DNA of 64,000 nt from the sequence record PV654397.1; one strand, written 5' to 3'. Each line of letters opens with the position of its first letter. Position 1 is the first letter of the stretch. Position numbers and translations under genes: made by a program. Source of the stretch: Escherichia phage WPEC5. Of the stretch, positions 4,318-5,575 are shown one piece after another. A model generated the notes under the pieces. That model saw nothing but the letters and a program-made list of their open reading frames with translations. It was not told where the DNA came from and ran no database searches.

Positions 4318-4440
4318 TCATTCCCCCATCAACCAATCACGTAGACGTTCCCAGAAGCCTTTTGGCTGATATTCTGGATATTCATATTCATCTGTTCCTT
4401 GCTCGGAAACACCCCAATCTTCTTCTAATACTGTAATCAC
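4318..4440 (-). CDS. small conserved protein (40 aa, ends DWLMGE); paralog of 5450..5575
   Basis: GTG after GGAGG; protein-level conservation with synonymous changes versus second copy. Confidence 0.35.
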   Translation of the reverse strand: MITVLEEDWGVSEQGTDEYEYPEYQPKGFWERLRDWLMGE

Positions 4441-4451
4441 AATGCCTCCAA

Positions 4452-4895
4452 TTAAATTAATCTATCACGTAGACGGTCGTAATATTTTGCATGTATATCT
4501 AGTATACACTGAAATGATGGATAGTCAATACTAAATGTATCATCAATGAACATGTACTGAAGAAGTGTTTCTGGTCCATTATCAACAACTGGTAATGTCC
4601 CTTCTTTTTTTGATAGGGTGTGCCACATCAACTCACTTTCAATATGGTGAGTTGCGTATGTCAATTCAATCTTACTTTTTCGTAGTAAAATTAACAATTC
4701 ATCATTGTCATCGAGTGCATTACGAAATTTAATACGAACTGTACCCTGGAAATTATTAGTGTACATAACACGATGATGATTGTATGAAATTAAACCACGT
4801 CTTTCAGTACTGATTTCATGTTCAGCAAAGTACTTTAACGTTTCATTAAATTTTGGAATTTTACTTGCGTCCACCAATGTAATCCTCATATACAT
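4452..4895 (-). CDS. hypothetical protein (147 aa), paralog of 4861..5274
   Basis: Shared M[YF]MR N-terminus and LQY.FIDDTF motif with neighbour. Confidence 0.55.
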   Translation of the reverse strand: MYMRITLVDASKIPKFNETLKYFAEHEISTERRGLISYNHHRVMYTNNFQGTVRIKFRNALDDNDELLILLRKSKIELTYATHHIESELMWHTLSKKEGTLPVVDNGPETLLQYMFIDDTFSIDYPSFQCILDIHAKYYDRLRDRLI

Positions 4896-5274
4896 GATAT
4901 ACGTTCATTATACTATTATATAGTTCAAAGTCAAATCCAAATGTGTCATCAATGAACTGATATTGTAGATACTCTTCATATGAAGCATCAATTGGTAATG
5001 AGCCAGAACGAATATCATCTGATTTAAAATCGTCAATATATCTTAATGTTATTTCTTCATCAACAGTGATATCTATCATCAACGTATCGTCACTGTACCA
5101 AAGGTTATGTATACGGATGTAAAGTTTCTTAGCACGATTAAAACTAGATACATTGGTATTGCGATGGAGTTTATCTAAGTTGAAGTAAAAACCAGGCTCG
5201 TTTTTACTTATGTTTTTCATATGTTCTGCAATCGAATCAATTATATAATCAATGTTGAATGTTCTCATAAACAA
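4861..5274 (-). CDS. hypothetical protein (137 aa), paralog of 4452..4895
   Basis: Shared motifs with neighbour; 35-nt overlap. Confidence 0.55.
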   Translation of the reverse strand: MFMRTFNIDYIIDSIAEHMKNISKNEPGFYFNLDKLHRNTNVSSFNRAKKLYIRIHNLWYSDDTLMIDITVDEEITLRYIDDFKSDDIRSGSLPIDASYEEYLQYQFIDDTFGFDFELYNSIMNVYHVYEDYIGGRK

Positions 5275-5450
5275 ATCTCATAGCGGTTTGTGTTTGGATT
5301 GTAGCAATAGGTATCATTAATTTTAACACCAGGTTTAAGTGTTATTGTTGTTCCTACTTCAGTACTGGGTTCTGCATCACAAAAAATCATCACACCAACG
5401 CCACAGATTAAAGCTAAGATACAAATAATAGCACATATTGTATATTCCAT
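5265..5450 (-). CDS. small membrane protein (61 aa)
   Basis: Hydrophobic ICAIICILALICGVGVMIF segment; internal ATG at 5450 overlaps upstream stop by 1 nt (TGATG). Confidence 0.4.
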   Translation of the reverse strand: MEYTICAIICILALICGVGVMIFCDAEPSTEVGTTITLKPGVKINDTYCYNPNTNRYEICL

Positions 5451-5575
5451 CACTCCCCCATCAGCCAATCAAAGAGACGCTCCAAGAAGCCATTAGGCTT
5501 GTATTCTGGTTCTTTGTTCACGTCGGTTTCTTGTTCATAAACACCCAAATCTTCTTCAAGTATAATTGTATTCAT
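5450..5575 (-). CDS. small conserved protein (41 aa, ends DWLMGE); paralog of 4318..4440
   Basis: ATG overlaps upstream stop (TAATG); conserved with second copy. Confidence 0.4.
   Translation of the reverse strand: MNTIILEEDLGVYEQETDVNKEPEYKPNGFLERLFDWLMGE

Follow-up and report, generated by a model that had tools for sequence, protein, structure and literature searches.

Organisation of the locus

The window analysed here is a stretch of 64,000 nucleotides from Escherichia phage WPEC5 (sequence record PV654397.1) and represents an Asteriusvirus-like jumbo coliphage. Between positions 3000 and 7000 it shares 96.9% identity with Escherichia phage Turkey3 and 84-86% with PBECO4 and 121Q. Every gene in this part of the window lies on the minus strand (Table 1), and the order of transcription runs from HPF and a hairpin terminator through p138, p127, sB, mem, p137, p147 and sA to the gene of a CCA tRNA nucleotidyltransferase (hereafter the CCA gene). 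The two copies of a small open reading frame (ORF) with which this analysis is concerned are termed sA and sB, and s is used for the copy in genomes that hold only one.

Table 1. Features of the locus, listed in the order of transcription (positions are those of the window).
Feature	Position	Strand	Product and start	Family	Remarks
HPF	6452-6784	-			First in transcription order
Hairpin terminator	6416-6443				3' of HPF
p138	5981-6397	-		phrog_36582	First member of the tandem paralogue array
p127	5575-5946	-	123 aa, TTG start	No PHROG match	Probably arrived together with sB
sB	5450-5575	-	41 aa, ATG start	phrog_34272	Second copy of the small ORF
mem	5265-5450	-	61 aa	phrog_4189	Small membrane protein, hydrophobic N-terminus
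p137	4861-5268	-	135 aa, ATG at 5268	phrog_20693
p147	4452-4874	-	140 aa, GTG start	phrog_20693	Maximal ORF extends to 4895
sA	4318-4440	-	40 aa, GTG start	phrog_34272	Copy at the conserved, apparently ancestral position directly upstream of the CCA gene
CCA tRNA nucleotidyltransferase gene	3201-4316	-			Conserved neighbour downstream of the small ORF

The genes are tightly packed. sA is preceded by a GGAGG Shine-Dalgarno sequence and its own final codons (GGGGGAA) hold the Shine-Dalgarno sequence of the CCA gene, while the ATG of sB overlaps the stop codon of p127 (TAATG), the stop codon of sB overlaps the ATG of mem (TGATG) and the ATG of p137 overlaps the stop codon of mem (ATGA). The order of p147 followed by sA is invariable. 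More widely, the cluster in Asteriusvirus-like jumbo phages comprises a lysozyme, HPF, a variable paralogue array, s, the CCA-adding enzyme, a NUDIX protein and glutaredoxin.

The two larger genes between the copies had been predicted to be paralogous, and this is confirmed for p147 and p137 by BLASTP (39% identity over 49 aa) and by comparison of profiles (hhalign probability 97.4%, E=1e-11). Their coordinates, originally placed at 4452-4895 and 4861-5274, need adjustment at the upstream ends, since the annotation of relatives makes 4874 and 5268 the likely true starts. The tiny membrane protein predicted beside them is present as mem. The profiles of p137, p127 and p138 match metagenomic proteins at the equivalent position (E=4e-6 to 1e-8 in a search of 13 sequences), and p138, p127, p137 and p147 have a C-terminal motif in common, (I/L)P...E(E/x)(F/Y)(F/L)Q...(I/L)xD. 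These four genes therefore appear to form one fast-evolving tandem family which is confined to these phages. As judged from these profiles, p127 is a remote member of it; the p127 gene is absent from genomes of the 121Q/PBECO4 type. An AlphaFold2 model of p137 (pLDDT 76) gave no convincing structural relative in a Foldseek search of the PDB, where the only match was a weak p32/gC1qR-like one (E=0.014, TM 0.32), and Foldseek matches in BFVD were limited to uncharacterised jumbo-phage proteins. Searches of Pfam, NCBIfam and PDB sequences returned nothing meaningful for the small ORFs or their neighbours, and the fEgEco12 genome paper contains neither a mention of these genes nor proteomics.

The C-termini of some of these proteins look alike (YYDRLRDRLI* in p147, FWERLRDWLMGE* in sA and IKWLSGE in p127). 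Descent of the small ORF from a fragment of the paralogue family was considered and set aside on its weak statistics (Smith-Waterman shuffle p=0.0125 and 0.05, hhalign E=0.05-0.07). Synonymous co-variation of the kind expected from gene conversion between the small ORF and the paralogues was not seen.

Similarity of the two copies

Both small ORFs are present on the minus strand where the original prediction had placed them, and an ungapped alignment of the peptides covers 37 residues, 25 of which are identical (68%; BLASTP E=8e-17). In the codon-aligned DNA of the two segments of about 125 bp there are 28 mismatches in 111 nucleotides (74.8% identity; blastn E=3e-20), distributed over codon positions 1, 2 and 3 as 8, 6 and 14, so that half of them fall at third positions. 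The similarity runs from codon 4/5 to the stop codon and is limited to the ORF, with flanks that do not align. The corresponding estimates (Sd=13, Nd=15, dS=1.34, dN=0.19, dN/dS=0.14) bear out the earlier view that the differences between the copies are enriched in synonymous changes and reflect selection on the protein; the outcome named beforehand as its refutation, namely a non-coding repeat without a synonymous excess, is the opposite of the substitution pattern found.

The two copies differ in how closely they follow their family. The profile HMM of phrog_34272 (40 positions) matches sA over profile positions 1-40 with E=3.2e-31, and sB over positions 4-40 with E=3.5e-16. The residues which are invariant in the single-copy members of phrog_34272 (W9, G10 and V11, within the LEE(D/N)WGV motif) are all kept in sA, whereas sB keeps G10 and V11 but has L9, Y12 and E15. 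No third copy of the small ORF was detected in the 64-kb window by tblastn or blastn.

A small protein gene under purifying selection

Comparison across relatives indicates that the small ORF truly encodes a protein of about 40 residues, which is under strong purifying selection. Among the sA orthologues of eight phages dN/dS is 0.03-0.2, typically 0.06, at dS values of 0.2-0.93. Remote homologues are 38-49 aa long with length differences that stay in frame, and in the metagenomic orthologue L007 the acidic middle part is lengthened by an in-frame insertion of 15 nt. Ser12 is retained through a switch between TCN and AGY codons, and other codons of the motif differ synonymously. Moreover, remote members keep the sequence MIxxLEE(D/N)WGV(S/N)(E/D)QG almost unchanged in phages whose adjoining CCA enzymes are only 55-57% identical to that of the window.

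The repeat could alternatively be read as a non-coding element (a regulatory RNA, a leader or attenuator, or a recombination site) which is open in one frame by chance. Such an element would account for the position of each copy directly 5' of another gene whose Shine-Dalgarno sequence it contains, and for the insertions that repeatedly separate the small ORF from the CCA gene in relatives. However, this reading is very improbable in view of the low dN/dS at dS up to 0.9, the predominance of third-position differences between the copies, the serine codon switch, the in-frame indels and the persistence of the protein motif. The RNA fold z-scores of the two copies (-0.77 and -0.64) show no stability beyond that of shuffled sequence, Rfam gave no match at E<=1 over positions 3000-7000 of the window, and the crossover proposed to lie behind the two-copy order sits in mem rather than in the repeat. 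The combination of substitution pattern, in-frame indels, motif conservation and lack of RNA structure leads to rejection of the non-coding repeat in favour of a protein gene.

Distribution and gene orders

A search of related phages, as suggested with the original prediction, traced the peptide by tblastn to 35 phage records, all Asteriusvirus-like. About 27 of the 35 records have only the copy adjoining the CCA gene, two have only a copy before mem, and six (Turkey3, fEgEco12, EC.P1, Ecwhy_1, ph0011 and CMSTMSU) have both. CMSTMSU was excluded from the evolutionary counts, its record being marked UNVERIFIED and rich in frameshifts. Three gene orders can be distinguished. The Type I order (121Q, PBECO4, TH47, UE-S1 and others) is promoter, mem, p137, p147, s, CCA; the Type III order (JNE01 and Turkey5) is promoter, p127, s, mem, CCA; and the Type II order of the window is promoter, p127, sB, mem, p137, p147, sA, CCA.

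Outside this group, a single copy is found between HPF and the CCA gene in Xanthomonas phage XaC1 and in four metagenomic lineages; in XaC1, L015 and L020/L021 it lies directly before the CCA gene. The presence of a single copy between these two genes in distant phages indicates that the CCA-adjoining position is ancestral. The gene downstream of the small ORF nonetheless varies by lineage and may be the CCA gene, mem, a 128-aa gene or an endonuclease-like gene. An exhaustive HMM search of 1.8 billion representative proteins was needed to reach the remote members; a word-indexed peptide search of 5.8 billion proteins returned four clusters only, all Asteriusvirus-like. Two long repeat proteins among the HMM matches (P0030 and P0032) were discarded as compositional artefacts. 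Searches for further two-copy genomes gave no match in complete E. coli genomes and only 121Q itself in IMG/VR, and the JGI metagenomes contributed one additional contig, single-copy and of the 121Q type. On this sampling of sequences, the usual state is one copy per genome, located just upstream of the CCA gene.

Origin of the second copy

The gene mem changes its nearest relative within its own length, which is the behaviour looked for in a recombinant mosaic. Its first 78 nt contain 8 differences between the window and JNE01 and 15 between the window and TH47, whereas the remaining 108 nt contain 35 and 4, respectively (Fisher p=1e-5). The pattern against PBECO4 and 121Q is similar, and across these tests p is 1e-5 to 1e-4, without adjustment for how the breakpoint was chosen. 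mem is thus a chimera, JNE01-like in its 5' ~51-95 nt and 121Q/TH47/PBECO4-like in its 3' part, with a right crossover at about 5356-5400. Neighbouring genes show equally uneven divergence, and dS between the window and JNE01 is 0.21 for p127, 0.30 for sB, 0.6 for HPF, 0.79 for mem and 1.63 for the CCA gene. The nearest relative of sB is the single copy of JNE01 and Turkey5 (dS 0.30), and that of sA is the single copy of 121Q-type phages. HPF and p138 are TH47-like, so the JNE01-like segment constitutes a patch. The flanks of this patch are conserved stretches, and on the left the highly conserved 3' end of p138 together with a promoter-like TGTATAAT motif forms the likely crossover zone. The dS between sA and the JNE01 copy is about 1.34 (1.2-1.6), similar to the value for the CCA gene, and fits orthology, although in mosaic genomes where dS differs strongly between neighbouring genes this argument is only suggestive.

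The chimeric mem, the JNE01-like p127 and sB beside a divergent CCA gene, and the existence of two alternative single-copy orders all point to recombination between gene orders. The sA/sB pair is best explained as diverged orthologues that were united by recombination and not as products of an in-place duplication. The donor would have been a JNE01-like phage of the Type III order and the recipient a 121Q/TH47-like phage of the Type I order. A patch consisting of p127, sB and the 5' part of mem would have recombined into the recipient backbone, with a left crossover in the conserved end of p138 or in the promoter and a right crossover inside mem, leaving two copies in the resulting genome.

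This differs from the original prediction, in which the locus was regarded as a segmental duplication of a micro-module. In-place duplication of an ancestral unit made up of a paralogue and the small ORF, with both copies functional as protein genes, would explain why each small ORF follows a divergent member of the paralogue family (sB after p127 and sA after p147) and why both ORFs are intact in the window. The kinship of p127 with p137 and p138 also fits such a unit, but it is indirect, through the metagenomic protein L017_135 (HMM E=4e-6 to 2e-5), and direct comparison of p127 with p137 by hhalign gives E=0.002. However, nothing beyond the ORF of about 115 nt aligns between the two sites, and the copies are not mutual closest relatives as a tandem duplication in situ would require. 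The intervening mem derives from two lineages, p127 and sB are JNE01-like (dS 0.2-0.3) in a backbone whose CCA gene stands at dS 1.6, all outgroup phages have a single copy, and sB shows the relaxed constraint and, in ph0011, the stop codons described below. Duplication in place is accordingly regarded as improbable. Another route to the same arrangement may have been an older two-copy ancestor followed by losses and exchange of alleles.

Fate of the second copy

The changes in sB were polarised with sA and with the Type III copies. In the Type II lineage sB has undergone about 12 nonsynonymous events, two of them nonsense, against 3-4 synonymous events (about 16 events in all, and hence small numbers). 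The corresponding baseline for the family is 7:15 to 13:24, from which sB departs (Fisher p=0.005-0.02); its ratio agrees with neutral change (p=0.32). Within these small counts no purifying selection was detected on the sB branch after the copies had come to share one genome. The substitutions (in family numbering W9L, S12Y, G15E, E18V, Y19N, K27N and W30L), of which W9L, S12Y, G15E and W30L fall at conserved positions, include replacement by leucine of W9, a residue invariant in every single-copy homologue. The Shine-Dalgarno sequence of JNE01 (GTGGAGC) is replaced by TATAATATATA at sB. In ph0011, sB is interrupted by TAG (codon 9) and TAA (codon 13) and has no annotation; these stop codons are known from one deposited sequence only and may reflect errors in sequencing. 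The last third of sB is intact even in ph0011. This part includes a GGGGGAG ribosome-binding site as well as the start of mem, which overlaps it.

These observations suggest that sB is probably redundant and decaying. The incoming copy would have become redundant, drifting near-neutrally towards a pseudogene, with its 3' end retained for the ribosome-binding site and start context that it provides to mem. The earlier statement that the duplicated stretch is still protein-coding thus stands for sA and requires qualification for sB, whose ORF is intact here but belongs to a lineage with relaxed constraint, lost invariant residues, a lost Shine-Dalgarno sequence and the nonsense codons of ph0011.

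Alternatively, sB may not be decaying at all and may have acquired a new or split function, either as a second small protein with a task of its own or as a leader whose translation drives mem by coupling. The substitutions W9L, S12Y, G15E and W30L would then have altered a binding surface, the overlaps with p127 and mem provide an ideal layout for coupling, and the C-terminal third (PEYKP.GF.ERLFDWLMGE) is almost unchanged. The 41-codon ORF is moreover intact in the window, Turkey3, fEgEco12, EC.P1 and Ecwhy_1, and the protein is identical in these five related phages. However, these are very close relatives, near-identical overall (94-97% at the nucleotide level), so that intactness says little either way and conservation carries little weight. 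The ratio of nonsynonymous to synonymous change fits neutrality, ph0011 has two nonsense codons yet retains the downstream region, and conservation of the 3' end is explained by the embedded ribosome-binding site of mem. A new function of sB is thus considered unlikely, although from its position for translational coupling (TAATG and TGATG) sB may still be translated with a changed function. The identity of the small gene, the recombination origin of the extra copy and the decay of that copy, taken jointly, are held to be the probable account of the locus.

Features and possible role of the small protein

The small protein is very acidic (pI ~4.1; 10-14 Asp/Glu but only 2-5 Lys/Arg) and contains many aromatic residues. 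Its N-terminus carries a near-invariant motif, MIxxLEE(D/N)WGV, after which comes an acidic linker of variable length. The AlphaFold2 model places helices at residues 3-9 and 27-38, with a pLDDT of ~79 in the last ten residues, and predicts with modest confidence that a disordered acidic linker joins a short helix at the N-terminus to an amphipathic one at the C-terminus. Conservation is strongest in the N-terminal 15 residues. This N-terminal peak, together with a downstream gene that varies between lineages, favours a free-standing protein over a leader peptide.

The small gene stays within the cluster that runs from lysozyme and HPF to the CCA-adding enzyme, NUDIX protein and glutaredoxin, suggesting a role connected with translation or tRNA maintenance. 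It is therefore tentatively conceivable, if somewhat doubtful, that the small protein acts in trans as a binding partner or regulator in the translation/tRNA-maintenance module of the phage, in which case the acidic-aromatic N-terminal motif would be the contact site. A more specific proposal, and a distinctly less likely one, is that it might be a dedicated and previously unrecognised partner of the tRNA/translation maintenance module of jumbo phages with LEEDWGV as the contact. It could then regulate or chaperone the CCA-adding enzyme, or act as a decoy mimicking nucleic acid or tRNA that is directed against a host defence nuclease targeting tRNA.

Comparison with known systems

The small gene is annotated at the same place in relatives, as a GenBank 'hypothetical protein' in 121Q (gp538, YP_009102125) and PBECO4 (gp034, YP_009150348), and corresponds to phrog_34272, a family without a described function. 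To phrog_34272 the present analysis adds remote members, namely gp258 of XaC1 and metagenomic proteins 38-49 aa long, as well as the conserved location beside the CCA gene and an assessment of the second copy.

The hyperplastic regions of T4-type phages are characterised by modular shuffling, in which variable small genes are recombined at the short conserved sequences that separate them. The present locus resembles them in having a variable array of small, fast-evolving genes between conserved genes, with alternative orders in close relatives and cassettes that appear to have been moved by crossovers in short conserved stretches. However, in contrast to the promoter-stem-loop cassettes of T4-type phages, the crossovers proposed here fall in the coding sequence of mem and in the p138 end or promoter, and the repeated small ORF is not itself the crossover site. 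The small ORFs also resemble coupled upstream ORFs and leader peptides, in that their stop codon lies 1-4 nt from the next start or overlaps it and the downstream Shine-Dalgarno sequence lies inside the last codons. They differ from arrest and leader peptides in that conservation peaks in the N-terminal 15 residues and not near the stop codon, where an arrest peptide should exert its effect, and from leader peptides in that the downstream gene is not the same in all lineages. Finally, Stp of phage T4 is a peptide of 26 aa that acts on the PrrC/EcoprrI tRNA-nuclease system. The small protein is of the same size class as such modulating peptides and is encoded near a CCA-adding enzyme, HPF, a NUDIX protein and a macro domain, which is a likeness by analogy only; unlike homologues, the two have no sequence similarity.

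Meaning for phage genome evolution

The apparent duplicated module is best explained as ordinary phage mosaicism, with an extra copy that seems to be eroding and with no new system involved, and current concepts of phage genome evolution are unchanged by these results. A 40-codon ORF that would easily be dismissed as noise is nevertheless supported by good evidence as a real and strongly constrained gene, and the four larger neighbours are recognised as one fast-evolving tandem family. The small gene keeps its place beside the gene of the phage CCA-adding enzyme even in distant jumbo phages, and its sharply defined N-terminal motif is a possible guide for experiments. Should the small protein indeed be a dedicated partner of the tRNA/translation maintenance module, the two-copy phages would represent a natural experiment in which one copy has been freed from constraint.

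A putative family of divergent tandem paralogues upstream of the CCA gene

The four tandem genes p147, p137, p127 and p138 appear, from their sequences, to form a single divergent paralogue family (see table). They are connected through metagenomic intermediates and have a C-terminal motif in common. Alleles of the array differ by up to 50% at the amino acid level among otherwise close phages, as exemplified by p137 (52% versus 96%).

Some likeness also extends to the two copies of the ~40-aa acidic small ORF, sA and sB. In their last codons, p147 and sA agree at 20 of 23 nt, 12 of them consecutive (CGTCTACGTGAT), and the proteins end in DRLRDRLI* and ERLRDWLMGE*, respectively. 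Similarly, the C-terminus of p127 carries a WLSGE motif resembling WLMGE of sB. Statistics for both C-terminal resemblances are weak (p ~0.01-0.05), and across phages the look-alike ends show no synonymous co-variation.

Coordinates of features in the window and in compared loci
Feature	Sequence	Position
p147, putative paralogue array	window	4452-4874
p137, putative paralogue array	window	4861-5268
p127, putative paralogue array	window	5575-5946
p138, putative paralogue array	window	5981-6397
Alike last codons, p147 vs sA	window	4455-4478 vs 4326-4350
43-bp tandem duplication	window	5965-6048
Hairpin	window	6416-6443
p138 missing	L011 (WPEC3)	1937-1991
355-aa ORF	L009 (TH47)	3130-4197
Interrupted small ORF/CCA junction	L014	1498-1737
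Interrupted small ORF/CCA junction	L017	4126-4512
Interrupted small ORF/CCA junction	L022	2375-2629
Interrupted small ORF/CCA junction	L004	3126-3311

Variation around p138

Around the 3' end of p138, a 43-bp segment is perfectly duplicated in tandem (2.0 copies, 100% match), which doubles the promoter-like TGTATAAT motif there and lengthens the gene by 12 codons; this duplication was not found in Turkey3, fEgEco12, ph0011, JNE01, TH47, PBECO4 or 121Q. Between HPF and p138 lies a strong hairpin (11-bp stem) with T-runs, probably the terminator between the transcription unit of HPF and the genes of the array. In phage WPEC3, p138 is entirely missing and HPF is followed directly by the membrane gene, which makes a fourth gene order for the HPF-to-CCA region.

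Insertions next to the CCA gene

In several lineages, different genes break up the junction of the small ORF with the CCA tRNA nucleotidyltransferase gene. An identical small protein is encoded in L014 and L015, and the extra gene following it is present in L014 only. In TH47, sA and the CCA gene are separated by a 355-aa ORF inserted precisely at their junction. This ORF encodes a zinc-finger domain of the treble-clef type (PF14311, E=1.7e-7) and a C-terminal part that, judged by eye only, looks endonuclease-like; the adjoining sA carries R32H and R34L. The small ORF/CCA junction looks like a recurrent insertion site.
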